From contig JBBRSP010000006.1 in the NCBI GenBank assembly GCA_038245295.1, forward strand, positions 174,021 to 238,020: a stretch of DNA of 64,000 nt, in the 5' to 3' direction. The translations under genes and the position numbers were made by a program. Shown here piece by piece: positions 1 through 19,386 of the stretch (positions are counted from its first letter, which is position 1; every line of letters begins with the position of its first letter). Under the pieces are notes generated by a model, which worked only from the letters and a program-made list of their open reading frames with translations, ran no database searches and had not been told where the DNA came from. This DNA is from Candidatus Binatia bacterium. GTDB lineage: Bacteria > Desulfobacterota > Binatia > HRBIN30.

Positions 1-28
1 TCGGAGCTATGTGGTCGGATTGTCGAGT

Positions 29-940
29 TCATCGGGATGGTGAGGGCAATAGCCGCGCATCGGGCGGACCTTTGCCCCTTGTGCTGCGGACGTTTTCTCC
101 CGGCGTCCCTTCCTTACTGTAGGGAAGTCCGGCGAGCTCTCGTAAGGAATGCGGCACCGCGCTCGCGGCCGCTCGCCAGATCGCTCCCGTGGGGTCGCTC
201 GTCACATCGTGCAGCGAGGCAAACCACACCGGGAGGGACGCGCGCACGTGAGCCACTCGCGCCCGGTAGCGTTCAAGCCAGACGGGATCGTGTCCAACGA
301 CGAGGACGATTTCCGGTGTGTCGCTCGGCTGCCAGTGGCTCGCCGTATAGCCGTATACCTTCTTCAAGAACCGCTGCGGTGTTCTCGTCTGATGTTCGAC
401 CTCGAGAGCGAACGTTGCGTGGACCTGATCGTCCCAGCCTACATCGAAGTGCGCGTCGGGAACGATTCGTCGAAGGCGCGGCGTGCGCAGTTCCCAGTCA
501 GACCGCCACGACAGGATCGCTCCGCCGGTTGCATCGAGCCCCCGCGCCAGGTGCACGCGGACCGTGTTGATCGCGAGGAGGTGCTCCAGGTTTCGGTCGA
601 GGCCCCGTGGGACGCGGTAGCGCTCATCGGCCGCTCCTTCATTTGCGAGAACCAGTCGTCCCGAGTTCGCTAGACTATAGACGTTGTCTCCCGAGAGGCT
701 GCGTACCCACACGCGCACAAGGCCTGCGTTGAGCAATCGGCGCAGGCACTTGTTCGTCGCGGATCGCGTGCCGAAGCACATGGTCTGGATCTGCGTCGTT
801 GTGAGGAAGCGCATCTTCGCCAGTGCTTCGAGGAGCCACTGATCACGATCGGTCAGGCGCACACGCGCCGCGTTTGCTCGCTTGAGTGTGCGGCGAGTGC
901 GGCAGCACTTTGACAGCAAAGCAATCGGTGTCTCGATCAT
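29..940 (-). CDS. Replication-relaxation family protein (wHTH N-terminus). ATG at 940 overlaps the stop of the upstream Zn-ribbon gene (ATGA). A longer alternative start lies at 985.
   Basis: N-terminal motif LTDRDQWLLEALAKMRFLTTTQIQTMCF...NKCLRRLLNAGLV is typical of the Replic_Relax family of actinobacterial plasmids/ICEs. It is the last gene of a coupled minus-strand operon. Confidence 0.6.
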   Translation of the reverse strand: MIETPIALLSKCCRTRRTLKRANAARVRLTDRDQWLLEALAKMRFLTTTQIQTMCFGTRSATNKCLRRLLNAGLVRVWVRSLSGDNVYSLANSGRLVLANEGAADERYRVPRGLDRNLEHLLAINTVRVHLARGLDATGGAILSWRSDWELRTPRLRRIVPDAHFDVGWDDQVHATFALEVEHQTRTPQRFLKKVYGYTASHWQPSDTPEIVLVVGHDPVWLERYRARVAHVRASLPVWFASLHDVTSDPTGAIWRAAASAVPHSLRELAGLPYSKEGTPGENVRSTRGKGPPDARLLPSPSR

Positions 941-1260
941 ACGCTCTGCACCGGGTTCTTGAGACCAACCCCGCATACCTGGCACGGAATGAAGGGCGGA
1001 GCGGCGCCGCAGACGGCGCAGCGCGTGAACGCAAAGCCATCAAACACGTATCGACAACGCCCGCATTCGAAACGACCGACCAGACTAACTGGCGAACCGC
1101 ATCCGAAGCAGGGCAACGCGTCCCGACGGGTCAGCACAACCGCGCCAGCGAGTTGCTTGGTCCAGCGGTAAAGACGACTCGCCACGCCGAATGGTAGCAG
1201 CACCGCCCAAAGGGCGAGCCGGATGGTCAGCAAGAGCGAGCGGAACATCAGATCTTCCAT
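937..1260 (-). CDS. Small membrane-anchored double zinc-ribbon protein (107 aa)
   Basis: Internal start MEDLMF at 1260-1258 overlaps the ATPase stop (TGATG). One TM helix is followed by four CxxC pairs (CFGCG, CGRC, CAVCG, CQVCG). Confidence 0.45.
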   Translation of the reverse strand: MEDLMFRSLLLTIRLALWAVLLPFGVASRLYRWTKQLAGAVVLTRRDALPCFGCGSPVSLVGRFECGRCRYVFDGFAFTRCAVCGAAPPFIPCQVCGVGLKNPVQSV

Positions 1261-2867
1261 CAGCCGAGTCGTGGCCTTCCCCGCCGAGTTGGCGGAACGG
1301 GCTCTTGAGACACGACGACGATCGGCGGCCGAACAAGTTCCCGGAGGCGAGCTTTCCGCGCGGTGAGTTGGCGACGCAACACTTCTCTCGGGACGGCGAA
1401 ACCGCCGTGGTCGATCCCCTGTTCCCTGATGAACGCGTCGAGCCGGTTCGCGGAGATCCCGATCCGCTCGTGTGGGGGCACGAAGTCCGCGACTCGAACT
1501 TGGACTGCACGGTATGGTTTGCGACGATCGTACCAGTAGCACATGCGGTTCGGCAGCCGCTGTAGTTTCTCCATCAAGTGACGGCGCATTTCGCTGCGAC
1601 TGGGAACCTCCCCTGAGCGGCGCAGGGCGCTTCCCACCATTTCCGGGTCGACGTCGGGAAGGAAGTCACCGAAGAATTCGGCGTTCCGCCCCGACGTCCG
1701 AAACAGCGCCATGAGGTCGCAGTTCGCAAGCATCGTCTCCCGGAGCGCCGGCGGCACTTGCGAGAAGTTGTGCATGACGAGTGCCAGGTGCACACCGAAG
1801 CTCCGAAGCGTCGTGAGTGCCGTCGCGAAGCGGTCGGCCAGCGCCGGGGCGGCGAGCAGGTGGAAGAATTCATCGAGGACGACGAGGTACGGACGATGTT
1901 TGCCTTCCGAGGCATAGGCCGCCTGGAACAACAGCTGAAGCAGCAGGCTGCCGAGCAAAGCCACCACCTCTTCTGGAATGCCGGCACCTTTGCCGAGAAA
2001 TACGAGCAAAGGATCACCTCGTGAGATGACGTCGCTCAGATCGATGAGATCGTCCGCCCCGAGCATGAGGCGGACGTTCTCGGCGAGCAGCAATGCCTGC
2101 AGCCGAGCGGTGAGCGCATGCTTCGACGTCTCCGGGAGAATCGCGTACGTCCGAAAGAAGAACTCCTTCAGGCGTTGGTCCGCCGACCGCTCGACGAGCA
2201 CACCGCGCAGCACGTCATCTTCCAGGACGGCAGGCGCCTCGACGAGCGACAGACCGGCCTCGGTGAGGAGCATCACCAAGTGACGGAGGATGTTCTCCAT
2301 ATGAATACTAAGCGAGGCCTCAAAGAGACGCGCGAATGCCAGGGTGACGTCGTAGGCCTGCACTTCGGCCGTCGATCCGGATGGTACCCGGCAGATGTTC
2401 AAAGGCGGCAGCGCATCGCTGAATGGGTTGATGATCGCGAGTCGCTCAATGAAGGTGGTGCGATCCCCTGGGTTCATCTCCCACGCGATTGCGGCAGCTG
2501 ACTGCAACACCATGTGAAAGAATCCCGACTTGCAATCGACGACGCCGATCGGTCGTCGTACCGAGAGTGCCCAGTCGACGCACGACGTAACGAAGGTCGT
2601 CTTGCCAGTACCGGTCCCACCCTGAACGAGCCAGTGCGCGGCGAAATCATCCGGGCTGAGTCGTAGACGCACCATTTTACCGGCCGCGTCGCCCGCCGTG
2701 CCAATCTGCAGCGCAAGCTCTTTATCCTGACTAGTTGTAACAAAAGCGTCGTAGTCACCGACGGCTTCGCGAAACACCCGGGCGCTCGCCCTTGCCACCT
2801 CGGCTCGTGCCTTCTGGCGATCACGCGCATGGCCGCGCGCGACTTGAATCCAACGCTCAAGTGCCAT
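1260..2867 (-). CDS. FtsK/HerA/TraD (VirD4)-superfamily P-loop ATPase, type IV coupling-protein-like
   Basis: Walker A GGTGTGKTT, Walker B LVVLDEFFH and a VVDCKSGF motif resembling T4CP DPKG. Paralogous to the 37685-38950 ORF. Confidence 0.6.
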   Translation of the reverse strand: MALERWIQVARGHARDRQKARAEVARASARVFREAVGDYDAFVTTSQDKELALQIGTAGDAAGKMVRLRLSPDDFAAHWLVQGGTGTGKTTFVTSCVDWALSVRRPIGVVDCKSGFFHMVLQSAAAIAWEMNPGDRTTFIERLAIINPFSDALPPLNICRVPSGSTAEVQAYDVTLAFARLFEASLSIHMENILRHLVMLLTEAGLSLVEAPAVLEDDVLRGVLVERSADQRLKEFFFRTYAILPETSKHALTARLQALLLAENVRLMLGADDLIDLSDVISRGDPLLVFLGKGAGIPEEVVALLGSLLLQLLFQAAYASEGKHRPYLVVLDEFFHLLAAPALADRFATALTTLRSFGVHLALVMHNFSQVPPALRETMLANCDLMALFRTSGRNAEFFGDFLPDVDPEMVGSALRRSGEVPSRSEMRRHLMEKLQRLPNRMCYWYDRRKPYRAVQVRVADFVPPHERIGISANRLDAFIREQGIDHGGFAVPREVLRRQLTARKARLRELVRPPIVVVSQEPVPPTRRGRPRLG

Positions 2868-2875
2868 CTCGATCC

Positions 2876-3166
2876 TCAGTGGTCGCGCTGCTCATGTCGC
2901 CGTTCGGCAATCCCCGCCGGCCGACGCACCGGTGGAATGCGGAGCGGCTGTTCATCCTCGATCTCCACATGCCCATGCCGCCGTATGGTCATCCCCGCAC
3001 CCAGGCATACCGCTACGATTCCCACGAGCAAGAGCCACGGCAGCACGACACTGATGACTAGAACGATTGCCTGGAAGGCGCAGCACATGAGCGGCTGCAC
3101 GATGAGCAGCGCCACCACAAGCTCGACCAGCGTGTCCATCGATGCCCGGCCGCGCTCATCGTTCAT
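2876..3166 (-). CDS. Small hydrophobic membrane protein (96 aa)
   Basis: Two predicted TM segments. Its start ATG overlaps the JAB-E1 stop (ATGA). Confidence 0.45.
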   Translation of the reverse strand: MNDERGRASMDTLVELVVALLIVQPLMCCAFQAIVLVISVVLPWLLLVGIVAVCLGAGMTIRRHGHVEIEDEQPLRIPPVRRPAGIAERRHEQRDH

Positions 3167-4605
3167 CCGGAGGCGCCTTCCGCGTGGCCGACATCATCCA
3201 GACCAGGGATGACCGGTGGTAACTCACTCCTGCTCATGCGGTTCGGGCGCCAGGTCGGAACAAGATCACCCAGACCCAGCCGTCCTTCTGCGCTGCAGTG
3301 CAAACACCCCTTTGTTTCCGGCACGGTGATTGAGAAGATCTCCCCTTCGAGTTCGCGATAGACGAGGTACGGCCGCGGGTTCCGGTAGGGGGCGACGAGG
3401 TTGTGCAGCTCTGCCACAGCAAGCGAGGCCACCACACCGTTTAGGTGGTACACCGCGGGCGCAGCTACTCCGGTCAAGTATCCGCGTTGCGTCAGAAGCG
3501 CCCGCTCCTCTGGTCGTGCCAGATCTTGTGCTGCACGCGTCGCGTCAAGCACACCTGCGCAGAGCAGGCACCACGCTCCCAGGGGCGGCACCACGACTTC
3601 GCCGCTGATATCGTCAAAGCGTCCGTCGTCGCCCACGCTGAGGTTGACCCCAGCGTGCAGAATCGGAATCAGATATTGCGCGGCCAAGGCGTTGAGCACG
3701 AGACGGGAAGCATCGTTGTCCGTGGCAGCGATCAAGACATCGCAACCACTGAGCGCCCTGAGCGAGCGCTCCGTGAACACGGTACAACGCAGCGCCTTGA
3801 TTTCCGCATCGTCGTCGATGCTGCGAATGTTTCGCGCCGCCACATCGACCTTGGCGATTTCTTCGGTCGCATCGGAGAGCGTGGTCGCGAGCAGTCGATT
3901 GAGGTTGCTGACTTCGACAATGTCCGGATCGACCAGCACCCAATCCCGCACCCCGAGTCGGGTGAGCTCCTCAACAATGACACTGCCAATGCCACCCACG
4001 CCGACAATTCCCACGCGCAGCGCTCGCATCCGCGCCTGAAACCCTCTCCCAAAAGCGCCGATCTGCCGATCGAACCGAGCGGCGTCGACCGCTGACAAGC
4101 CCGCATCCCCATCGAACATCAGCATCGCTCCATCGAAGGACGGCGACGGAATTCGAACCGGCCTCGCTTCGTCATCGCGCACCTCCCAAATGCGTGTGGC
4201 TGTGCTCGATGGATTGACGACGACCGAACCGTAAACCGTTTCAGGCAGGCGCTCCGCGAGGTAGGCAGCCATTACGAGTTCGTTTTGATCATCGATACAC
4301 GAGAAATCGACGTGCGGGCCGTCACCGGGGTGCGAGTGGAAGTCGACCTGCGACAAACCCTCTTGGGCGGCCAGTTGCAGGACGTGCTGCTGCACCTCGG
4401 GTCGCAGGGTCAGACCGCCCGCCGATTGATGACTGAATGCCTCAGGCGGCATGAGTACGAGGTGACGTCCCAGAAGCCTCAGTTGTGTGCCTGTGCGGTG
4501 CAGGCCGCAGAGTACGATAGCCATTTGCTCACGCTCTCGATCGTGGAGCAGGTGCGTGCGGAGTTCTCCTCCCATGGTTGGTGGAAGGACGATTCGATAG
4601 TTCAT
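3163..4605 (-). CDS. JAB/MPN(JAMM) deubiquitinase-like domain fused to E1-like ThiF/MoeB adenylyltransferase domain
   Basis: The N-terminus has a JAMM-like motif EG...FHSHPGDGPHVDFSCIDD. The central region has the ThiF Rossmann motif GIVGVGGIGS...VLVDPDIVEVSNLNRL. C-terminal CxxC pairs (CLLCAG, CLHCSAEG) are present. Start MNYRIV at 4605 is 11 nt after the E2 stop. Confidence 0.75.
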   Translation of the reverse strand: MNYRIVLPPTMGGELRTHLLHDREREQMAIVLCGLHRTGTQLRLLGRHLVLMPPEAFSHQSAGGLTLRPEVQQHVLQLAAQEGLSQVDFHSHPGDGPHVDFSCIDDQNELVMAAYLAERLPETVYGSVVVNPSSTATRIWEVRDDEARPVRIPSPSFDGAMLMFDGDAGLSAVDAARFDRQIGAFGRGFQARMRALRVGIVGVGGIGSVIVEELTRLGVRDWVLVDPDIVEVSNLNRLLATTLSDATEEIAKVDVAARNIRSIDDDAEIKALRCTVFTERSLRALSGCDVLIAATDNDASRLVLNALAAQYLIPILHAGVNLSVGDDGRFDDISGEVVVPPLGAWCLLCAGVLDATRAAQDLARPEERALLTQRGYLTGVAAPAVYHLNGVVASLAVAELHNLVAPYRNPRPYLVYRELEGEIFSITVPETKGCLHCSAEGRLGLGDLVPTWRPNRMSRSELPPVIPGLDDVGHAEGASG

Positions 4606-4616
4606 GACGGATGTCC

Positions 4617-5168
4617 TCAATTGTCGTTGGTCAACACGTCGCGCACGAGCGACAAGAAGGTCCACAGATTGTCGGAATCGCGGAAGTCGGCCGATGGCTG
4701 CCAACCGCCATCGTCAGGAGCCTTCGGCCAGACGCAATACCAGTGCCAACCTGCTGCCAGAAGATCGGGCGCACCATGAAATGCGGAGCTGGTGAGATGT
4801 GGATCACCCCCGCCGTCGGCCAGAGGAAATTTCCTGTCGAGATAGAAACCGAGTGGCGGTGAGATCGGGTAGGTCTGTGGGAACACGACTAAGAGCTGCG
4901 CCCAGCGGTGCTGCCAGCGTTCCGGGAGCGCGAACTGTTGGATGCGAAGCCAATCGCCGTTCGCTTCGTCGAAGTCGACGCCACCGCGATCGCTGAAACG
5001 CGGCGCGATCATCAGGACCTCGTTCTGAATGCGCGTTGTGCGATCGTCGAACCCCGAGGGGCCAACGGCAGCCCGGCGCGCTGGCGCTCTGTCGGGCGTC
5101 ACGTCGATCGCCGTATCATGGCCGTCTGGTATGAACAGTGCCTCAAGGACTCGGACGAATGTGCTCAT
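4617..5168 (-). CDS. E2/UBC-like ubiquitin-conjugating enzyme homolog
   Basis: UBC-like FPQTYPISPPLGFYLD motif (compare eukaryotic FPxxYPFxPPxxxF). A candidate catalytic Cys sits in WHWYCVWP. The gene lies between the Ubl and JAB-E1 genes, and the Ubl stop overlaps its ATG. Confidence 0.55.
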   Translation of the reverse strand: MSTFVRVLEALFIPDGHDTAIDVTPDRAPARRAAVGPSGFDDRTTRIQNEVLMIAPRFSDRGGVDFDEANGDWLRIQQFALPERWQHRWAQLLVVFPQTYPISPPLGFYLDRKFPLADGGGDPHLTSSAFHGAPDLLAAGWHWYCVWPKAPDDGGWQPSADFRDSDNLWTFLSLVRDVLTNDN

Positions 5169-5392
5169 GAAAACCTCCCCCTGGCCTGCCCTTTGACCCG
5201 CGCCGGCGCATCGAGAAATACGTCCCCGTCGTTGATCGGAACTCTGCTGCCCTTCGGGATCATGAAGTTGCCTTCTCGCGTTCGGCGCATGAGATTGCGC
5301 TTGCCGTCGATGTTGCCGATCCGACGGATATCCGCATCGGAGGCTGACTCCGGCAAATTCACCTGACGACCGTTGATGATTGCTGCTGCCAT
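5165..5392 (-). CDS. ThiS/MoaD-like beta-grasp ubiquitin-like protein (75 aa), no C-terminal Gly-Gly
   Basis: MAAAIINGRQVNLPESASDADI...IPKGSRVPINDGDVFLDAP fits the ThiS/MoaD pattern. A GGGAGA RBS lies 7 nt upstream of the ATG. It is the first gene of the coupled operon. Confidence 0.5.
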   Translation of the reverse strand: MAAAIINGRQVNLPESASDADIRRIGNIDGKRNLMRRTREGNFMIPKGSRVPINDGDVFLDAPARVKGQARGRFS

Positions 5393-5788
5393 TTTGTGTT
5401 CTCCCTTTTTGTGTTGTGCTGCTGTTGAAGGACTATCGGTTCCGCCCGCGGCGCTTCGGCGCGCCGCCGAAGAGTTGCTTGGCAACCTCATGGCCCAGCC
5501 CGCCAAGCTGTCGCGTCGCTTCGCCCTTGAAGCCTCGCAGTTGCCACTCGGCCTCGCGGCCAAAGCCGCGGAGCTGCCGACTCGCTTCACGACGGATTTG
5601 GCGAACGAGCCCGCTCCGTCTGTCATCGCCTCGCTTTGCCATTCTTGTCCTCCTCTCTTGTTTTTTGATCGGTCATGGCTCGCGTCGAAGCGCCGTACAG
5701 AACGCCTCACGTGTGACCGGATCCTAGAGCGGATTGAGAAAAGGGGTACGGTAACGACGGGGCTACGGAGAGGGATACTGAGGATAGG

Positions 5789-6658
5789 TCAAACGACCGC
5801 GAGGACGCGGCAGATTTGGCGAACGACGTCGGTGGCAATCGCGCTTTGGGCGTGCAGCAACTGGGACTCGGAGAAAGGGTAAGAGCTGGCCCACAGGACT
5901 TCTTGTTTCTTTGTGTCGGTCAACTCGACGTCGAGTCGAGCGACATCACCGTGCGCGCGAAGGATACCGATGAGCACGGCACAGACTTCGTCGGCGCGAA
6001 CGTCGCGCTGTCGGTTCTCAGCTTTACTGTGAGCTGCAATCTCGAGAACAGTGGCCAGATCCGCAGAAACAACTCGCAGTCCGCGGACGCTGGAAAGCTG
6101 CGCGAGAATGGTCGCACGAAAGCCGCCGGCCAAATCTGCGCCGAGTCGTTCACCTGTGGCCGCTTGGAATGCAGGCATGAGTAGACAGTGGTTGAACGAG
6201 ACGCCAGCCGACTCGGCCCGCACGAGCTCGCGCCAGTCCACTCGCCACCCGACCCGCACGCTCAACACGTCGGCAAGTTTTACCAGCGAGCCACTCGTCG
6301 CTCGACCCCCGCTGCGCCACTTCTTGATCGTGCCTTCCGAAAGAAGCCGGCTCTCGAGCGCCAGTCCAGGTTCGTAGAGGTCGATGATTTTCAAGCCGGC
6401 CTGTCGGCAGAGCGTCTTGAGCTTGGGGTAGTCAACGGAGTAGCCGCGGCGATGCTCATCGTTTGCTGTTGTGGTGGCACGCGATATCGCGCGCCCTCCG
6501 CCGCTCTTACCTTGTCGTGGTCGTGAAGATCGGGCAAGACGTCGTGTAGCCGCTCCCACCACGGTGGTTACTGGCGATACCGGATCAGGAGCGACGAACC
6601 CTCGCGTTTCGTGCCGACGCTGCGCCGGCTCGGCTCCTTCTGATGCACGACGGTTCAT
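5789..6658 (-). CDS. HTH (XRE-like) domain protein with an R-rich N-terminus
   Basis: LKTLCRQAGLKIIDLYEPGLALESRLLSEGTIKKWRSGGRATSGSLVKLADVL resembles a Cro/C1 HTH. It lies upstream of the Ubl operon on the same strand. Confidence 0.4.
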   Translation of the reverse strand: MNRRASEGAEPAQRRHETRGFVAPDPVSPVTTVVGAATRRLARSSRPRQGKSGGGRAISRATTTANDEHRRGYSVDYPKLKTLCRQAGLKIIDLYEPGLALESRLLSEGTIKKWRSGGRATSGSLVKLADVLSVRVGWRVDWRELVRAESAGVSFNHCLLMPAFQAATGERLGADLAGGFRATILAQLSSVRGLRVVSADLATVLEIAAHSKAENRQRDVRADEVCAVLIGILRAHGDVARLDVELTDTKKQEVLWASSYPFSESQLLHAQSAIATDVVRQICRVLAVV

Positions 6659-7743
6659 TGCCTGGCCTCCTTCCGAGGGCGAGTACTTTGACGGCGAGAC
6701 GTTTGTCTCCTCGTGGAGGATTTTGGGGTCTTTCCTCTAGGTGACGAGACAGGGGCGATATGAGGGGCCTTCGGAACATCGCCAACGTCTGGAACCGCGG
6801 CGATTTCATCTATGCTCGACGGCGGTAGCAAGGTGACCTCTTCCTTAATGCCAGGACGCAGCCGTTCGGCGAGTTGCAACCTGCGGCGAAACCATATGCG
6901 GTAGTCGGCTGACGACGCTCGCGGTATCGCGTCCACGCCACTCGCGACGAGCCACCCGTGGGCAGCTGCGAGTGTGGCATTGAACTCCTCGATCAGTCCG
7001 TCGACCGGATCGTGTCGATCCAGCGGAAAGCCGCTCGTCTCGATTTCTTGCAGCAGCTCATCGCCAATCGGCAACAGGCGGTGAGTTGCGAATTGGACGA
7101 ACCGGAGGGGCTCACCCACGGCGTGTGGGAGCAAGTATGAAACGAGTCGGAAATTCGCGTCGACAGCGTGCGGGACTTCACCTAGCGCGAGCGCTGTCAG
7201 ATAGTGGTAGCGACGACATTCGTTCCACAGGAGAAACGCATAGGCGGCCTGCTCGTTCGGCAAGAGCCCTTGAATTAGTACGCCAGCCGCCGCCAACCGA
7301 AGAGCGGATTGGAGGTGGCGATCCAGTTGATCGCTGTACGCGACGACAACGATCCTTCTCTCCGGAAAAAACAGGGCGCCCATGCGCTCGGCTTCCTTTA
7401 GCGATCGCACAATTAGTTTGGATGGACCCATCCACGTCCACAAGCGATAGCGGCGATCACGGGTTTCAAAGAGGAGCGGAAGGTAGCGCACCTTCCGCGT
7501 CGAGCGCTGTTCGAGACGTCGCTCCTGTCGCAGAGCCTCTAGGCCGATCTTTCCGCCACCGTGAGCGCGGACAAATTCCGACCGGTAGACTTTCTTGTAC
7601 GCCGCCGAGTGACGCCGTCCCAAGCCGCGTTTAGTCACAAGCCTCTTCCTCTTCCTCTTCTCACCGCTTTCTGTTGATACCGGTCGGCGCGCTTCACGGG
7701 GTGAGGCGGGCGGTGGGTTATGTTTGTTGTCGTCCATCGTCAT
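6655..7743 (-). CDS. Hypothetical protein (362 aa)
   Basis: Long ORF with a 4-nt overlap to the downstream gene. No recognisable motif. Confidence 0.35.
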   Translation of the reverse strand: MTMDDNKHNPPPASPREARRPVSTESGEKRKRKRLVTKRGLGRRHSAAYKKVYRSEFVRAHGGGKIGLEALRQERRLEQRSTRKVRYLPLLFETRDRRYRLWTWMGPSKLIVRSLKEAERMGALFFPERRIVVVAYSDQLDRHLQSALRLAAAGVLIQGLLPNEQAAYAFLLWNECRRYHYLTALALGEVPHAVDANFRLVSYLLPHAVGEPLRFVQFATHRLLPIGDELLQEIETSGFPLDRHDPVDGLIEEFNATLAAAHGWLVASGVDAIPRASSADYRIWFRRRLQLAERLRPGIKEEVTLLPPSSIDEIAAVPDVGDVPKAPHIAPVSSPRGKTPKSSTRRQTSRRQSTRPRKEARQ

Positions 7744-7921
7744 TCAGGGAAGCCGTCGAGTGCTTCACCATTCCTCTACTCGACAAACTACAGCACGCGC
7801 GCATCGCGTTCGACGGCCAGAACCGGTTGGACCGACACAACGCGACCCTTGTCGGCGTGACGAAACAAGCGGCGCTACAGGTCTTCCTGAAGCGCCGCTT
7901 TCGTATTGCTGCCCAAGGTCG

Positions 7922-8464
7922 TCACCTCCGCGATGCAGGGTGTCGTATGGGGAGGGAATGGTTGCCGTCAGCTGAATAGTAGTAAGTAAGGGCGAAAGAG
8001 ACGGCATCGAAAATCGCCATCCGTTGGTCCTCGCTCATCCAGAGCTTGCGAATCGGCGGCACCGATACCGCTAAGGCAGGGAGATGTTCCGCAACGGTGC
8101 GGGCCATCCGGTCTTTGTTCGGTCGCTCTTCCCCTTTGAACATCTCGCGGACTTCCCGCGCCGAGACGATGTGAAGGTCAAGGCCAAGGTGGATGACGAG
8201 CCGCGAGATTCCTCGAATCAAGGCACGCGCGCGTCGTCGACGCCGACAGCTTGAGTCCGCGCAATTCTCAACGATGACGATGTCCGGTTGGTACTGCTGA
8301 ATGAGCTGGGTCACCTTCTGGAGTGCCACTCGTCGCGTACCACCACGGCTTCGACTCAGACCCCAATCTACAAGGTCACCCGGGCCTTCAAGGATTGCAT
8401 ACCCAAAACCACGCGAGAACGGATCCACCCCTAAGACCCGGCGCGTCATGCGCTCGCGTCTCAT
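7922..8464 (-). CDS. RuvC/YqgF-like RNase H-fold resolvase-like protein
   Basis: VLGVDPFSRGFGYAILEG...PDIVIVEN resembles the RuvC N-terminal motif (LGIDPG...G.A). Its start overlaps the upstream HTH gene stop. Confidence 0.45.
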   Translation of the reverse strand: MRRERMTRRVLGVDPFSRGFGYAILEGPGDLVDWGLSRSRGGTRRVALQKVTQLIQQYQPDIVIVENCADSSCRRRRRARALIRGISRLVIHLGLDLHIVSAREVREMFKGEERPNKDRMARTVAEHLPALAVSVPPIRKLWMSEDQRMAIFDAVSFALTYYYSADGNHSLPIRHPASRR

Positions 8465-10263: not shown

Positions 10264-10746
10264 ATGTGGGCAAGACTGGCAGCGGTTATCTACTTCTTCT
10301 TGTCGCAAATCGGCGGGGGCGGGAGCCTACCTGCACAGAGCGGCATCGTCCTGAGCTGTGCGGGCGCCACGTGCACCCCGACATCTACGCGCACACGAAC
10401 GCCAACACGGACCCGGACACCGACCCCAACATGCACGGAAACACCGACGCCGATCGCAGAACCGGTGGTACACGCTGACATCGCGTGCTGGAAAACAGGC
10501 GTTCAGTGCTACGCCTGCAACCGGGGCCCGGACGACGCAACGATTCACGGTTTCGTTACGCCCGCGACAATGCCGGCGAGCCCCGACTTCTCGATCTCGT
10601 GTGGCAGTACGCTTTTCGTTTGGGCGGCGGATGGCGCCTCGGATCCGGCATCTGTCACCTGCCTCGTTTCAGTGGTGGGGAATGGACCGAAGAACATCAG
10701 TTGCGGAACGGTGCCGGTATCCTCCTGCGACTGTCTTGCGCCGTGA
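10264..10746 (+). CDS. Small secreted protein with a signal peptide and PT/RT-rich linker
   Basis: N-terminal hydrophobic segment, a TPTSTRTRTPTRTRTPTPTCTETPTP low-complexity tract and multiple Cys. Confidence 0.45.
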   Translation: MWARLAAVIYFFLSQIGGGGSLPAQSGIVLSCAGATCTPTSTRTRTPTRTRTPTPTCTETPTPIAEPVVHADIACWKTGVQCYACNRGPDDATIHGFVTPATMPASPDFSISCGSTLFVWAADGASDPASVTCLVSVVGNGPKNISCGTVPVSSCDCLAP

Positions 10747-11100: not shown

Positions 11101-12438
11101 GTCGTCAGTTGGTGCTCGCTGCTCCGCGCCTTCGGCCAGGCCGTACTTCTCGCGCAGGCGCTGGAGCTTTGGGAAGTCTTCGAGGGCGATGACGTAGCTT
11201 CCTTGAACTCGTTGCGGCTTGAGACCAAGGCGCTTTCGTAGAATGCCGCCGATCCACTTGTTCGTCACCTTGCGCTCGTATTCGTCACCAAAGCGTTCCG
11301 TAAACTCGGTCGTGATCTCTTTGACAGAAAGACGCGACTCGGCGCTGAGAAGCAACAGTTCATTGATGACGTCGACCACTTGCGCCTCGGTGCTCATCCC
11401 TCGCTCGGAAACGGTATCGTGCTGATAGCGGTGCGCGAGCTCCGTGATTTCCAGACGAACGGCCGCATCGTCGATGATGCTGAGCAAAGGCACGAAGACC
11501 TGATTGAGACGCGGTTCGAGGCTCCGGTCGACGAACGCTTCGTTCGGACGGCATCGGGGTAAAGTCCGGAAACGGAACAGCAGGAGCTTGTTCCGCAGCG
11601 CACGTGCTTCATTCTCAAATGCTTCGGGAAGGCTGATCGGAATGTCCTCGCGCAACGGACGTTGCCCCATGTCTTCGGTCAGGCAGCGACTCTCAAGAGC
11701 GTTGTCTTCAAAGAAGCCGCGGGTAGCGATAATCTTCGGCCCAAACACCGCATAGGCGCGCGGGTTGAATTCGCCCTTGCCGTTCGCCTCGCTCCTGAGC
11801 ACGGGGAAGCCCCGGCCGTTCCCGTTGTTGAGGATCTTGACGACTTCAGCCTTCGCGTCGGTCTGGCGCCAATCGCTCTCGTCGACGACGAGAGTGCCGC
11901 GAAAGGTGTCGATCAGCCGAAAGATTGGCGAGACGGTTGAGGCGCCACTGGCGAAGATTGGTTTGTAGCAGAGCGATCCGACGGTCAGGAGAAACCGGCT
12001 TTTGCCGCTGCCGGCGTCACCGCGGACGCGAAGGTATGGCAGCTCGTTGAACCGATCGTAGACCCACGTGAAGAGGATGTAGTAGCTCGCGATCTGTTCA
12101 TAGATCGGGCTCAGATCAACGTAGCGATGCAGAAACGCCTGGAGTTCGTGGATCAAGTCAGACTCTGCACCGTACTCCTCGGGCGCAGACGGAAACATCA
12201 CGACGCGATGTTTCACGAGGTTGTTGCTGGCGGCGTAGGGCACGAGAGTCTCGGAGGCACTGAGTTCAACGCGGGGCTGTTCGTGCCACGTGCCGTCGTT
12301 CCACACGGCGAAGGACGTCGAGACCTTCTCAGGGTCGTAGACCATTTCCACGACTCGCCCATCGGCAAGCACCGCAGATACGGCCGGGACGCCGCGCGAG
12401 GTGGTCGGCTCTTGTTTGTCAAGCTGCTTCTCGTCCAT
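11074..12438 (-). CDS. P-loop NTPase, putative replicative helicase-like protein of the element
   Basis: Walker A RGDAGSGKSRFL and Walker B-like TLVVDESDW. Lies immediately downstream of the TOPRIM/zf-CHC2 primase gene and overlaps it. Confidence 0.5.
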   Translation of the reverse strand: MDEKQLDKQEPTTSRGVPAVSAVLADGRVVEMVYDPEKVSTSFAVWNDGTWHEQPRVELSASETLVPYAASNNLVKHRVVMFPSAPEEYGAESDLIHELQAFLHRYVDLSPIYEQIASYYILFTWVYDRFNELPYLRVRGDAGSGKSRFLLTVGSLCYKPIFASGASTVSPIFRLIDTFRGTLVVDESDWRQTDAKAEVVKILNNGNGRGFPVLRSEANGKGEFNPRAYAVFGPKIIATRGFFEDNALESRCLTEDMGQRPLREDIPISLPEAFENEARALRNKLLLFRFRTLPRCRPNEAFVDRSLEPRLNQVFVPLLSIIDDAAVRLEITELAHRYQHDTVSERGMSTEAQVVDVINELLLLSAESRLSVKEITTEFTERFGDEYERKVTNKWIGGILRKRLGLKPQRVQGSYVIALEDFPKLQRLREKYGLAEGAEQRAPTDDQVTLGDFG

Positions 12439-13498
12439 CGGTTTGAGAGTGAAGGTTTTCCAAAAACTCAAGCGCTTTCAGGAACGGTAACCGCTCGACG
12501 GCGATCACGAACGTGATCACGTCACCGTACCGGCCGCAGCCGTAGCAGCGGAACCGACCGGCCTCGGGGTACACCATGAGCGAGGGGTAGTGGTCTTCGT
12601 GGAAGGGGCACCGGCCACGCAGACTCGCGCCGGACGGGCGCAGTTGGATGTAGCGCTCGATCAGATCGCCAATGGGAACCGCCGCCTTTACGTCAGCAAC
12701 GCGACGACTCACTTCGTTGAAGGGACGCGAAAGACCAGACGACGGTATCACCGGTAGGGTCACGGGAAGCACGGGTACCGGCGTCGCTCGCTCAAGGAGC
12801 CCGAGAAAGTCTTCGCGCGTGTGTTGAAGTCGCACGAAGAAGTCGGTGATGTCACCGGCCGGACCCACCTCGTCGGGTAACTGGACGATTTTTGCATGTG
12901 GCAGGAATTGGCCGACGCGCAGCGCTCCAGCCCGGCCGGCGCCGTCGAGATCAAAGCAGAGGTAGATCTCCGGAATTGGTGCGAGATCATCAACCCACTC
13001 GGTACGGAGGGTACCCGCGCCACCGGTCGACGTCACGGCCGCGAAGCCGTGCGACTCCAAGACCAGTCGATCGAACTCGCCTTCGCAAATGATGAGGCGG
13101 CACGGTTTCGCGAGCACACGCTCCCAACCGTAGAGTTCTACTGACCCGCCGCGCGACGTCAGCATTTTTGGATCGTCGTTGCTGCCTTCCGGATCCCTCG
13201 CCAGTTTGAAGCAAACCACTTCGTCCAAGCGGTTGCGGATCGGAATCGTAATGCGCCGACCGTTCCAACCGAGCTGATGGAGTGTGATCACCTCGTCCGC
13301 GATACCGCGCGCCACAAGATACGTGCGAATGCGGTCGGGCAGCGCTTCGTGGTACCGAATGGCTTGGGCGCGAAGGTCGTCATGCATGATTCGCACGGTA
13401 CGACAGTCTACTACGTGGCCGAAGGCGGCGCGGTATGGCGACAACGGCAAGTCGGCCAGTCTTCGGTGCATTGAGGACGACGCGTAGGATGGACGCAT
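12419..13498 (-). CDS. Primase-like protein with a TOPRIM domain followed by a C-terminal CHC2 zinc finger
   Basis: TOPRIM motifs LIICEGEFD and CFDLDGAGR are mid-protein. The zf-CHC2 motif CPFHEDHYPSLMVYPEAGRFRCYGCGRYGDVITF is at the C-terminus. Confidence 0.6.
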   Translation of the reverse strand: MRPSYASSSMHRRLADLPLSPYRAAFGHVVDCRTVRIMHDDLRAQAIRYHEALPDRIRTYLVARGIADEVITLHQLGWNGRRITIPIRNRLDEVVCFKLARDPEGSNDDPKMLTSRGGSVELYGWERVLAKPCRLIICEGEFDRLVLESHGFAAVTSTGGAGTLRTEWVDDLAPIPEIYLCFDLDGAGRAGALRVGQFLPHAKIVQLPDEVGPAGDITDFFVRLQHTREDFLGLLERATPVPVLPVTLPVIPSSGLSRPFNEVSRRVADVKAAVPIGDLIERYIQLRPSGASLRGRCPFHEDHYPSLMVYPEAGRFRCYGCGRYGDVITFVIAVERLPFLKALEFLENLHSQTDGREAA

Positions 13499-13668: not shown

Positions 13669-13896
13669 ATGGCGGTTGAACGACGCGAACTGACTTCGCT
13701 CCGTCATCTCCTCACCCTAGGAGAGGTGGCGGAGTTTCTGCGCATCTCAAAAACCAGCGTCTATCGGCTCGTCGATCGGCGCGAACTTTCCTGCTGCCGT
13801 GTCGGTCGCAGCCTCAGGTTCACGATCCACGATGTAGATACCTACTTGCGTAGTCAACGCATCGGACCAACTGCCGCTGATCAAGACAACCTATGA
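13669..13896 (+). CDS. xis: Excisionase-family HTH DNA-binding protein
   Basis: LLTLGEVAEFLRISKTSVYRLVDRRELSCCRVGRSLRF matches the excisionase/AlpA-type HTH. Overlaps the integrase start by 4 nt. Confidence 0.6.
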   Translation: MAVERRELTSLRHLLTLGEVAEFLRISKTSVYRLVDRRELSCCRVGRSLRFTIHDVDTYLRSQRIGPTAADQDNL

Positions 13897-15080
13897 GCGC
13901 ACGGAAAATAGGACACTCCTGGTGGGTGGATTTCCGACACGCTCACCAGAGAATTAGAAAACGAAGTCCAGACAACAGTCGCGCTGGCGCTGCGGTATTC
14001 GAGGCGACGCTGCGCGGTCGCTTGGCTCGCGGAGAACCGCTGTTTCCAGCGGTGCACCGACCCCAGCCAAAGCCGCGCTTCGAAGTGTTCGCCTGGCACT
14101 GGTACGACGTCTATGTGAAGACCAACAACAAGCCGTCCGAGCAGCGGACGAAGCGAATAGTCCTCCGAAGGCACCTCGTACCGTGTTTTGGGAAGTCCGC
14201 TCTCGACGCGATCACGGCGCTCCACATCGAGCAATTCAAGGCGTCGCAACTTAAGTCGGGCCTTGCCCCAAAGACTGTCAACAACTCCCTAGCGATCCTT
14301 GGAAAATGCCTTCGAACCGCAGAAGAATGGGGCGAGGTTGTTCGCATGCCCAAGATCAAGCCGTTGCAGGTGCCGCCGCAGAAGTTCGACTTCCTGTCGG
14401 TCGAAGAAGCGAATCGGCTCATCCGCGCAGGGAACGATCCTCAGTGGCGAGCGATGGTCGTAGTCGCACTTCGAACCGGTCTCCGGCTCGGCGAGCTACT
14501 CGCGCTCGATTGGACAGATATCGATCTGGAAGCCTCGAGACTCACGGTACGGCGGTCGGTCTTCGGGAACCAGTTCGTTTCGCCGAAGAGCAACCGCATC
14601 CGGCACATTCCGCTCACAGATCAGACGCTACGGGTGCTCTGCGCGATCAAACAACCGGCCGGTCTTGTTTTCAAGCGCCGCGGTCCCGGACCTCTGAATC
14701 GTAAGACCCCAGCAAGAGTGATTTCGCTCCTTTGCACCGCAGCGGGCATTCGCCAAATCGGATGGCACGTCCTCCGACATACATTCGCCAGTCACCTGGC
14801 GATGGGCGGCGTTAGCATGAAGGCAATTCAGGAACTGCTTGGCCATTCAGACATTCGAACGACGATGCGCTACGCCCATCTGACTCCATCGATACTGCAG
14901 GACGCAGTGCGCGTTCTCGAGTCCGAGCCGACGCCAGCGGACACGCTTGTTGGGCAACCGGCGGGCAACGCTTTTGTAGCCGCCGTGGAGGACAAACAAA
15001 AACACCCCAGTATACGGGGCGTTTCTGCGGAATTTGTTGGCTCGGGAGGTGGGATTCGAAACGCCGGGCACGACGTTTGA
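13893..15080 (+). CDS. int: Tyrosine site-specific integrase
   Basis: C-terminal catalytic motifs HVLRHTFASHLAMGGVSMKAIQELLGHSDIRTTMRYAHL (R...HxxR...Y). Core-binding N-terminal domain present. Confidence 0.85.
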   Translation: MSARKIGHSWWVDFRHAHQRIRKRSPDNSRAGAAVFEATLRGRLARGEPLFPAVHRPQPKPRFEVFAWHWYDVYVKTNNKPSEQRTKRIVLRRHLVPCFGKSALDAITALHIEQFKASQLKSGLAPKTVNNSLAILGKCLRTAEEWGEVVRMPKIKPLQVPPQKFDFLSVEEANRLIRAGNDPQWRAMVVVALRTGLRLGELLALDWTDIDLEASRLTVRRSVFGNQFVSPKSNRIRHIPLTDQTLRVLCAIKQPAGLVFKRRGPGPLNRKTPARVISLLCTAAGIRQIGWHVLRHTFASHLAMGGVSMKAIQELLGHSDIRTTMRYAHLTPSILQDAVRVLESEPTPADTLVGQPAGNAFVAAVEDKQKHPSIRGVSAEFVGSGGGIRNAGHDV

Positions 15081-18345: not shown

Positions 18346-19386
18346 TTGAGCGCACTTCGTAAAGCGTTCTGGGGCAATCTCTCGAATCGGCAGCGGCCAG
18401 GGACTCTTGATGGTGATCGCATAGTCGGCAGTCCCGCATTGGCAACTGCCGCAAAGTCTCACCACCTGCCAAAAGATCAGCGCATAAAGCGATCTGTCGA
18501 GATCCAACGGTCCTTCTCACTGATCTCGCCTCGAGCGCCGAACCAGTCGAGTACCGTACTGATGAGATCCGCAGCGACAGTGGGCATCCATTGCACGACG
18601 ACGTCGAGCGTTTGCCGTAAGCGGATTCCGGATCAGCCCCTGCGTGAAAGGATCAGCGATCCTCGCTTCGCAGATTTTAACGAAGGCGCTAGGTGGGACT
18701 CGGTAGGAGGTGGCGTTTGCGTGGCAATGACTATTGAAGATGTCGAGCAACGTGCCGGTCGCGTTCTCAACGCGCAACTCCGAAACCCGAATCGCGATGT
18801 TCAGGACGCGATGTTTCGCGTGCTATGCGCCAGAGTCGTAAAATTTGGCAACGCTGCCAGCATGCTGCGATCAGCGGGATATGCTGAGCCAGCAATGGTA
18901 ATGTTGCGATGCATTTACGAGACCTATCTGTGGACTCGTTGGATTCTGATAGATCCGAAAAACGCGCAGCAATATTGGGATATCGGCAAGCGAGAAGCGG
19001 CCCGATTAACTGGAAAAATGGTTGGACAATACGAGATCAAGATCCGTGACTTTCCAAAGGACTCGCACGTACGCCAGGCCTATAGTGACCGCCAGGCGAA
19101 GAGTATCGACCTTCCTGATCCATCGCGCCTAGCTGCAACTGTGGGGGTGCAGCGCCTTCACGACGCCGTCTATCCGCTTCTCTCGTGGATGACACATGGG
19201 AACATTCTTTCGCTCGGCGAAGGCATGCTTGCGTCGACGAACGGCCAGTCTGTTCCGACGGGGGCAAGCGAGCTGAACGTCATGTTGTTCGACGTCATGG
19301 CGGCAAGAGTCGGTGAGGCATGCGTCGAAATCCTCGAGACCTGGTCCGAACGCCACGAGGTTGCACCGCCGTTCATTTGGAAATGA
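18346..19386 (+). CDS. Hypothetical protein. The true start is possibly the internal M near 18727.
   Basis: ORF only. No recognisable motif. Divergent from the PHP-ATPase gene. Confidence 0.3.
   Translation: MSALRKAFWGNLSNRQRPGTLDGDRIVGSPALATAAKSHHLPKDQRIKRSVEIQRSFSLISPRAPNQSSTVLMRSAATVGIHCTTTSSVCRKRIPDQPLRERISDPRFADFNEGARWDSVGGGVCVAMTIEDVEQRAGRVLNAQLRNPNRDVQDAMFRVLCARVVKFGNAASMLRSAGYAEPAMVMLRCIYETYLWTRWILIDPKNAQQYWDIGKREAARLTGKMVGQYEIKIRDFPKDSHVRQAYSDRQAKSIDLPDPSRLAATVGVQRLHDAVYPLLSWMTHGNILSLGEGMLASTNGQSVPTGASELNVMLFDVMAARVGEACVEILETWSERHEVAPPFIWK

Follow-up and report, generated by a model that had tools for sequence, protein, structure and literature searches.

In a window of 64,000 nucleotides (nt) from a Candidatus Binatia bacterium (assembly GCA_038245295.1, contig JBBRSP010000006.1, positions 174,021 to 238,020 of the forward strand), a single minus-strand gene encodes a JAB/JAMM peptidase domain followed by an E1/ThiF adenylation domain in one protein of 480 amino acids (aa), hereafter JAB-E1. 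Our main conclusion, to which we assign a probability of roughly 75%, is that this protein is a bifunctional enzyme of the BubCD family, placed at the centre of a three-gene operon for the conjugation of a ubiquitin-like protein (Ubl) on an integrative mobile element. The individual steps of the mechanism proposed below are held with less confidence than the scheme as a whole, and the chemistry of all of them is drawn from sequence and from analogy with studied systems.

The minus-strand open reading frame (ORF) extends over 3163..4704 when read from a TTG codon (513 aa), while an ATG at 4605 yields the 480-aa protein. The ATG is favoured by the end of the upstream E2 gene at 4617, by a GAGGA sequence 8 nt in front of the codon, and by some 70 homologues (470-500 aa) whose alignment with the protein starts at residue 1. 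A preliminary description of this DNA had placed a JAMM-like motif, a ThiF-type Rossmann motif and CxxC pairs in one 480-aa protein, and exact-codon translation bears this out for E26 (4528-4530), HSHPGDGPHVDFSCID (4291-4338, containing H90, H92, S102 and D105), GVGGIG (3985-4002) and the two CxxC pairs, CLLC and CLHC (Table 1). The proposed fusion of a JAB (MPN+) domain with an E1 in a single polypeptide also stands, with the catalytic residues of both halves all kept in the alignment of 84 homologues on which our conservation counts for JAB-E1 are based; the close clade comprises 51 sequences.

Both sequence and structure searches point to BubCD. The closest sequence in the Protein Data Bank (PDB) by phmmer is Citrobacter BubCD (9ea4_A, E 1e-38; residues 4-409 against 8-407), and the next matches, namely UBA7, UBA1, ThiF, MoeB, UBA5 and Cap2, span the E1 half only. 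An AlphaFold2 model built on the alignment of 84 homologues reached a pLDDT of 91.8 and a pTM of 0.90, and its eight best Foldseek matches are all BubCD chains (E ~1e-35, TM score 0.70-0.78, ~470 aligned columns). Only BubCD entries span both domains in this search; UBA5, ThiF and MoeB follow with the C-terminal half only. By sequence and model, JAB-E1 is thus assigned to the BubCD family. The BubCD of Citrobacter sp. RHBSTW-00271 has been characterised by crystal structures (PDB 9ea4, 9ea5, 9ea8, 9eae and 9eav) and biochemistry, and each of its key residues has a counterpart in JAB-E1 (Table 1): the peptidase activity requires E28 and D104, zinc is bound by H91, H93 and D104, the change of R227 to alanine, predicted to disrupt adenylation, lowers conjugation, and Y370 is the sole invariant residue of the crossover loop, where Y370F abolishes conjugation (PMC11601596).

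In the N-terminal half, the JAMM residues E26, H90, H92, S102 and D105, arranged as E...HxH...S-x-x-D, are invariant in 84/84 homologues. All 10-residue blocks of residues 1-150 average a pLDDT of at least 94, and over its entire length the model agrees in global fold with crystal structures of zinc-bound Citrobacter BubCD. Sequence and model together support the predicted JAMM/MPN+ metalloprotease domain. The inactive MPN- fold, which the preliminary description had considered as the contrary outcome, is not indicated by the sequence, because both halves of JAB-E1 retain every catalytic residue.

The C-terminal half matches Pfam ThiF with E 6.4e-35 and 120.9 bits (cut-off 28.1). Its adenylation residues R180, G202, G204, G207, D226, D228, R237, K252 and D296 are invariant in the 84 homologues and, with GxGxxG, the arginine finger R237 and the Mg-binding Asp D296 kept, sequence places this half in the E1/ThiF superfamily. 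The crossover loop contains a 'GY' (Y376) that is invariant in 84/84 homologues, and no conserved cysteine. Judging from what is generally known of ThiF, MoeB and UBA5, we presume that the two CxxC pairs form a structural zinc site. Family-level models were less specific: all NCBIfam matches of JAB-E1 (ThiF, MoeB and others) are far below their cut-offs, so that no equivalog applies, and PADLOC matched only the E1 core of Cap2 'E1-E2' models, covering ~220-350 in the numbering of the 513-aa ORF (~190-320 of the 480-aa protein), with no match on the E2 or the Ubl.

The fusion itself is a known architecture and nothing new, its family having been solved structurally in 2024-25. The preliminary description considered it unusual in comparison with the separate BilC/BilD and Cap3/Cap2 proteins, and this part of it does not hold. 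A JAB-E1 fusion is the signature of the '6e' operons predicted in 2006 by Iyer, Burroughs and Aravind (PMC1779556), which a 2024 preprint reporting the BubCD structures renamed Type I Bub (formerly 6E.1/DUF6527), consisting of BubAB (a Ubl-E2 fusion), BubCD (the JAB-E1 fusion) and BubE (DUF6527, a serine protease) (PMC11601596). Bil and CBASS are both more distant than BubCD, and neither is the closest family. A word-indexed search retrieved at least 140 JAB-E1 homologues, many annotated with PF14464 and PF00899, and tblastn located relatives at 30-34% identity on 133 PLSDB plasmids, which come chiefly from Rhizobium, Enterobacter, Bradyrhizobium and Citrobacter; on 111 of the plasmids the match spans 80% or more of the query. 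It could be argued that two neighbouring genes were read as one through an annotation or assembly error, or that the gene is decaying, and the window does appear to come from a metagenome-assembled contig. We found no support for this and give it next to no weight: such an artefact is already excluded, since more than 100 independent contigs, drawn from many samples, carry the fusion as one ORF of 450-590 aa, since a solved crystal structure shows the same fusion, and since the two domains pack rigidly in a high-confidence model (pTM 0.90).

The three genes run in the order Ubl (75 aa), E2 (183 aa) and JAB-E1, all on the minus strand and tightly packed. The stop codon of the Ubl overlaps the start of the E2 (ATGA), 11 nt separate the E2 from JAB-E1, and the stop of JAB-E1 again shares an ATGA with the start codon of the next gene, which encodes a 96-aa membrane protein. 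A scan of positions 1..8000 for promoters and terminators revealed nothing resembling a promoter and, within the operon, no terminator that was convincing.

The E2 is one of three points at which the operon departs from the studied Bub systems, the others being the lack of BubE and the separation of Ubl and E2 into two genes. It matches Pfam Prok-E2_E (E 7.8e-7, above the cut-off), and its AlphaFold2 model (pLDDT 84) shows a UBC fold with BubB (9eae_C) as the best PDB match, followed by eukaryotic UBCs. Because the single sequence gave nothing significant against the PDB (BubB at E 0.38), profile-profile and fold searches were needed; a 70-sequence profile gave E 0.006. Residues C145, in the motif GWHWYC, D122 and H124 are invariant in 70/70 homologues. 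BubB has an invariant serine where these E2s carry cysteine, and Bub conjugation proceeds without a catalytic cysteine, via Tyr/Ser oxyesters (PMC11601596). Three more distant E2 relatives have S-x-H instead; searched as a profile, they match Citrobacter BubB (E 4e-16), and their S-x-H falls on S333/H335 and their PPD on D299. When the profiles of the cysteine-type and serine-type E2s were aligned by hhalign (probability 97.4%, E 1e-11), C145 fell on the serine of S-x-H, and in this alignment the equivalent of D299 is Leu/Ile and that of H335 is Trp/Gln/Thr in the cysteine-type E2s. Cys145 therefore appears to occupy the position of the catalytic Ser333 of BubB.

The E2 profile was searched against 1.84 billion cluster representatives, which gave 385 matches at E <=1e-3, of which 180 have E <=1e-10. 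Among the best 150 of the 385, the C145 column holds cysteine in 138 and serine in only 2, implying that the cysteine form is a sizeable group within Prok-E2_E. It goes without mention in the literature compared, namely two Bub papers and the 2006 survey (PMC1779556). Some domains of this type are fused to TIR (P0247) or to Effector-associated domain 8, EAD8 (P0258), and others lie at the C-terminus of proteins of ~1130 aa (among P0214, P0220, P0226 and P0231), one of which, P0214, also carries an RRM.

The Ubl carries a C-terminal motif R-[VI]-K-G whose glycine is invariant among related Ubls, with tails of 0-13 residues behind it. Ten of 15 distinct Ubls end exactly at this Gly, two have one extra residue, two are tailed and one is fused to an E2; the tailed ones are that of the window (7 residues) and that of the relative locus L003 (13 residues). 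The tail after G68 implies that the window Ubl requires trimming, and BubCD (PMC11601596) and BilC cleave Ubl in this manner in their own systems. Ubl and E2 are separate genes in the window, and Ubl-E2 fusions occur in the relatives L007 and L017. A small Ubl profile finds the 'Multi-ubiquitin domain-containing protein' of PDB 9d59 with E 0.004, and the syntenic Conexibacter orthologue matches Pfam Multi_ubiq. Just upstream of the Ubl, a 69-aa ORF (5433..5642, minus strand) with repeated RQLRGFG(R/K)EA-like helical motifs has no Pfam match; a 65-aa gene stands at the same position in L002.

The operon lacks BubE by Pfam and tblastn searches. No gene neighbouring the operon matches DUF6527 (PF20137), for which Conexibacter BubE (L006) served as a positive control at 7e-20, and tblastn with that BubE, run over the window and all the loci, gave nothing significant in the window (best E 0.42). 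BubE was likewise not found in the examined loci with a cysteine-type E2. A 107-aa membrane-anchored zinc ribbon encoded nearby was considered as a divergent BubE and rejected for want of similarity (no DUF6527 match; negative by BLASTP against BubE). In L009, a locus with a serine-type E2, about 950 nt without a called gene (7365-8312) follow JAB-E1 where BubE would be expected, and genes for Replic_Relax, HTH_17 and integrase are in the vicinity.

By its gene content, the Ubl-E2-JAB-E1 operon is part of an integrative mobile element. The membrane protein downstream of JAB-E1 is followed by genes for an FtsK/VirD4-like ATPase and a replication-relaxation protein, and a tyrosine integrase marks the far end (Table 1). 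The ATPase of 535 aa also matches NCBIfam conju_CD1115 (E 1e-6) and PADLOC mad8/HerA, and an HTH_17 gene and one further gene follow Replic_Relax past the window edge. Between operon and integrase lie genes for RuvC-like, HTH_3 and DUF932 proteins and a primase (12419..13498). The order Ubl, E2, JAB-E1, membrane protein, ATPase, one further gene, Replic_Relax and HTH_17 recurs, with 59-71% identity, in a Binatia metagenome-assembled genome (MAG) and a metagenome contig of the JGI, followed by the integrase where the contig reaches far enough. The 96-aa membrane protein gene is kept downstream of JAB-E1 in L002, L003 and L011. A tRNA scan found none in the window, so that an attachment site could not be assigned.

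A second group of loci has a gene for an NYN-domain (PIN-like nuclease) protein directly upstream of the Ubl. It comprises at least 12 loci with the cysteine-type system, from Anaerolineae/Chloroflexota and Syntrophorhabdaceae, from MAGs with no label beyond uncultured bacteria or Enterobacteriaceae, and from a cultured Nostoc, where the locus lies on the conjugative plasmid pNPM1. These cassettes sometimes adjoin CRISPR or toxin-antitoxin genes, and the NYN gene is absent from the window clade. The NYN protein may be an effector or a target of the conjugation system. The mobile element, the NYN, CRISPR and toxin-antitoxin neighbours and the E2s fused to TIR or EAD8 together suggest a function in conflict or defence, the same tentative view that the authors of the Bub work hold of their operons. 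The 51-sequence clade alignment retrieved related loci from genomes and gave no relatives among IMG/VR viral contigs.

We propose the following sequence of events. The JAB domain, as a zinc metalloprotease, would trim the 7-residue tail of the 75-aa Ubl and expose Gly68. The E1, probably a homodimer as in BubCD, ThiF and MoeB, would then bind ATP-Mg and adenylate Gly68, and Tyr376 on the mobile crossover loop would accept the Ubl as a tyrosyl oxyester (an aryl ester), as shown for Y370 of BubCD. From there the Ubl would move to Cys145 of the E2 as a thioester, a step that yields a serine oxyester in the studied Bub systems, and the E2 would transfer it to lysines of target proteins by aminolysis. 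Being the sole peptidase when BubE is lacking, the JAB domain would most likely also strip the Ubl from its targets. The analysis itself shows which domains are present, that their catalytic residues are conserved, that the proteins are homologous to BubCD and BubB, and how the operon is built and placed; every chemical step, the thioester at Cys145, the deconjugating role and the function in defence or conflict are what we infer.

Several points weigh against this scheme. The domain scan with hidden Markov models (HMMs), proposed in the preliminary description, succeeded for ThiF and fell short for Prok-JAB (PF14464), which scores E 6e-4 and 20.1 bits, below its gathering cut-off of 25. We count this as a matter of HMM sensitivity and not as a sign of a degenerate domain, because the five JAMM residues are invariant in the 84 homologues; many of the homologues carry a precomputed PF14464 match. 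The placement of Cys145 on the BubB serine comes from the profile alignment. The window Ubl has no Pfam match even at E 10, and its presumed nature as a single β-grasp domain draws on a weak profile match (E 0.004) and on synteny. With transfer genes so closely linked, the operon could serve the biology of the element instead of defence. The authors of the Citrobacter BubCD study propose for the JAB domain a role mainly in pro-Ubl maturation and not in deconjugation (PMC11601596). Finally, the E2 cysteine might attack the adenylate directly.

The last point touches the relay from tyrosine to cysteine, for which we know of no precedent. Phenolic esters are more activated than alkyl esters, and therefore the transfer from Tyr to Cys is chemically reasonable. 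It is nevertheless conceivable that in this clade Tyr376 only positions the substrate and is no covalent intermediate, the docked E2 offering Cys145 for direct attack on the Ubl-adenylate. The homodimeric, E1-like MoeB works without an E1 covalent intermediate, the crossover loop lacks a cysteine, and a nucleophilic cysteine on the E2 may make an extra oxyester step needless. However, the tyrosine is invariant in all 84 homologues, including those paired with cysteine-type E2s, and Y370F in BubCD abolishes conjugation (PMC11601596). We regard direct attack as unlikely, although it is, with a JAB domain that only matures the Ubl, one of the two main alternatives to our scheme.

The second question is whether the JAB domain does more than mature the Ubl. 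A domain acting as a maturase only, in the way proposed for Citrobacter BubCD, would trim the tail of the pro-Ubl or separate a Ubl from the E2 to which it is fused. This would agree with the tails of 7 and 13 residues in the window and L003, with the fusions in L007 and L017, and with the findings that the BubCD peptidase cuts BubAB after the Ubl glycine and that conjugation proceeds with the peptidase intact (PMC11601596). Yet 10/15 related Ubls have nothing to trim while the JAMM residues of the JAB-E1 partners are invariant, and no second peptidase such as BubE was found to perform deconjugation. On these two grounds we consider a pure maturase rather improbable and suppose that the JAB domain probably also removes the Ubl from its targets, beyond maturation.

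A more radical alternative is that the operon conjugates no protein at all and constitutes a sulfur-carrier or small-molecule biosynthesis module like those of ThiS, MoaD and CysO, its JAB being a Mec+-like hydrolase. The best NCBIfam similarities of JAB-E1 are indeed to ThiF and MoeB, all far below cut-offs, and neighbourhoods with JAB, E1 and Ubl occur in cysteine and siderophore pathways (PMC1779556). We reject this alternative as very unlikely because the operon contains a dedicated UBC-fold E2 with an invariant cysteine and because domain scans of the neighbourhood revealed no rhodanese domain, sulfurtransferase or biosynthetic gene; the nearest solved relative is, moreover, a demonstrated protein-conjugating enzyme, and the operon is on a mobile element.

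Comparison with known systems supports a kinship with Type I Bub that is accompanied by clear differences. Like BubCD, the window protein has an N-terminal JAB/JAMM domain docked on a C-terminal E1 of the homodimer type without a cysteine in the crossover loop, and in the operon it is accompanied by a Ubl with a terminal Gly and by an E2 of the Prok-E2_E type. Unlike BubCD, to which it is ~24% identical, it keeps two CxxC pairs, the first of which Citrobacter BubCD lacks. Its E2 has cysteine in place of Ser333 and no equivalents of D299 and H335, so that the Ser/His(+2)/Asp set of BubB is not found; the Ubl, a single β-grasp domain by our reading, is separate from the E2 and not fused as in BubAB; and BubE was not found in the window. 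The 6e operons (PMC1779556) share the fusion of JAB with E1, the Ubl and an E2-fold protein; a standalone E2 between Ubl and JAB-E1 and a solo Ubl are mentioned there, and the operons were noted as mobile and sometimes on conjugative elements. In contrast, their E2-like domain was described as lacking a conserved cysteine, and as inactive or RWD-like, whereas the cysteine of the window E2 is invariant, and they include a metal-binding protein (now BubE) that was not found in the window.

The more distant systems share individual parts. Bil, which has a defence role, likewise combines a Ubl (BilA), an E2 with a catalytic cysteine (BilB), a JAB that can pre-process the Ubl (BilC) and an E1 (BilD), but its JAB and E1 are separate and BilD is a eukaryote-like E1 with inactive and active adenylation domains and a mobile Cys domain (IAD-AAD-CYS), whereas the window E1 is a single adenylation domain of the minimal homodimer-type fold without a Cys domain. 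Type II CBASS has a related E1 adenylation core, as the PADLOC E1-E2 models and the presence of Cap2 among the PDB matches indicate. Unlike the window system, however, Cap2 fuses E2 and E1, the JAB (Cap3) is separate, and the conjugated protein is the CD-NTase and not a Ubl; no CD-NTase or CBASS effector gene is present in the operon neighbourhood. ThiF, MoeB and UBA5 share the C-terminal fold, GxGxxG and the CxxC...CxxC arrangement; for ThiF and MoeB the fold matches reach target-normalised TM scores of 0.85-0.89. ThiF and MoeB have neither a JAB domain nor an E2 partner, and UBA5 has a cysteine (C250) in the crossover loop where JAB-E1 has tyrosine.

What we describe is thus a known JAB-E1 architecture in a variant pathway, with a cysteine-type E2, no BubE and a mobile element, of which no description was found in two Bub papers and the 2006 survey. 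Tentatively, and at slightly less than even odds, we suggest that the window represents a third, undescribed lineage of Bub-like systems, with a BubCD-type tyrosine E1, a catalytic-cysteine E2 and a fused JAB as the sole maturase and deconjugase without BubE. It would occur in two settings: one is the NYN-Ubl-E2-JAB/E1 cassette, seen in Chloroflexota, on cyanobacterial plasmids and elsewhere, and the other, that of the window, is a coupling to the module by which an integrative element transfers and replicates. With tyrosine on the E1 and a cysteine kept or regained on the E2, such a lineage would use a hybrid oxyester/thioester relay and would form a natural intermediate between Ubl conjugation that relies on cysteine and conjugation that does without it.

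The cysteine-type variant offers a natural contrast to the cysteine-free Bub mechanism. It bears on whether a tyrosyl ester can hand a Ubl to a thiol, on whether cysteine or serine is the ancestral state of the E2, and on the job of the fused JAB where the Ubl requires no trimming. The plasmid pNPM1 of the cultured Nostoc, which carries an NYN cassette, provides experimental access.

Table 1. Features of the operon, of the JAB-E1 protein and of the surrounding element, with positions in the window; related loci are given by their labels.
Feature	Position	Strand	Basis
JAB-E1 fusion gene, BubCD homologue (480 aa)	3163..4605	(-)	ORF, phmmer against PDB, Foldseek
Predicted JAB/JAMM (MPN+) peptidase domain, residues 1-152	4150..4605	(-)	Prok-JAB below cut-off, invariant residues, BubCD alignment, pLDDT
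Predicted E1/ThiF adenylation domain, residues 172-445	3271..4092	(-)	Pfam ThiF, invariant residues, BubCD alignment, fold matches
JAB-E1 E26, equivalent to BubCD E28			phmmer alignment (BubCD chain numbering offset by 2)
JAB-E1 H90, equivalent to BubCD H91			phmmer alignment
JAB-E1 H92, equivalent to BubCD H93			phmmer alignment
JAB-E1 D105, equivalent to BubCD D104			phmmer alignment
JAB-E1 R237, equivalent to BubCD R227			phmmer alignment
JAB-E1 Y376 (crossover loop), equivalent to BubCD catalytic Y370	3478..3480	(-)	phmmer alignment; BubCD 'ERGYITGV'; loop pLDDT 75-84
First CxxC (C346, C349), CLLC, directly before crossover loop	3559..3570	(-)	invariant 84/84
Second CxxC (C434, C437), CLHC	3295..3306	(-)	C437 in 83/84; both invariant in the 51-sequence close clade
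E2/UBC-fold protein, 183 aa, Prok-E2_E family	4617..5168	(-)	Pfam, AlphaFold2 model, hhalign
E2 Cys145	4734-4736	(-)	invariant 70/70
E2 D122-P-H124	4797-4805	(-)	D122 and H124 invariant 70/70
Ubl, 75 aa	5165..5392	(-)	gene call, alignment, profile match to PDB 9d59
Ubl predicted conjugating Gly68	5189-5191	(-)	followed by 7-residue tail QARGRFS
96-aa membrane protein	2876..3166	(-)	Kyte-Doolittle means >2 over residues 13-45; no DUF6527 match
535-aa FtsK/VirD4-like (coupling-protein-like) ATPase	1260..2867	(-)	weak Pfam TrwB_AAD_bind, TraG-D_C, T4SS-DNA_transf; conserved synteny
107-aa protein, N-terminal hydrophobic helix and four CxxC (double zinc ribbon)	937..1260	(-)	gene call; weak DZR match
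Replication-relaxation protein	29..985	(-)	Pfam Replic_Relax E 1.1e-17
Tyrosine integrase, far end of element	13893..15080	(+)	Pfam Phage_integrase E 5.7e-31
NYN-Ubl-E2-JAB/E1 loci	L004, L005, L010, L012-L014, L018-L022, L025; L028:3382-3954 (Nostoc plasmid pNPM1)		

The remaining genes of the element and its surroundings are recorded as separate observations. Both L002 and L003 conserve the 107-aa zinc-ribbon gene, which lies between those for the ATPase and Replic_Relax. Upstream of the operon, two overlapping minus-strand genes of 289 and 362 aa (5789..6658 and 6655..7743) have no Pfam, NCBIfam or PADLOC match, and no homologues of them are detectable in the otherwise syntenic L002 and L003. 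On the opposite strand, a 160-aa ORF within the element (10264..10746, plus strand) combines an N-terminus of hydrophobic character with a low-complexity repeat, TPT(x)TRTRTPT, and has no Pfam match.

Just past the integrase, a 995-aa ATPase of the AAA_21/SMC_N type (AbiEii/OLD-like; 15273..18260, minus strand) is encoded next to a divergent gene for a DUF5677 protein (18346..19386, plus strand), and the two may be paired defence genes on the element's edge. Farther along the window, a very large ORF of 1665 aa (39167..44164, plus strand) and a rise of the guanine-cytosine fraction to 0.64-0.67 past ~52 kb suggest a change of genomic context far from the operon.

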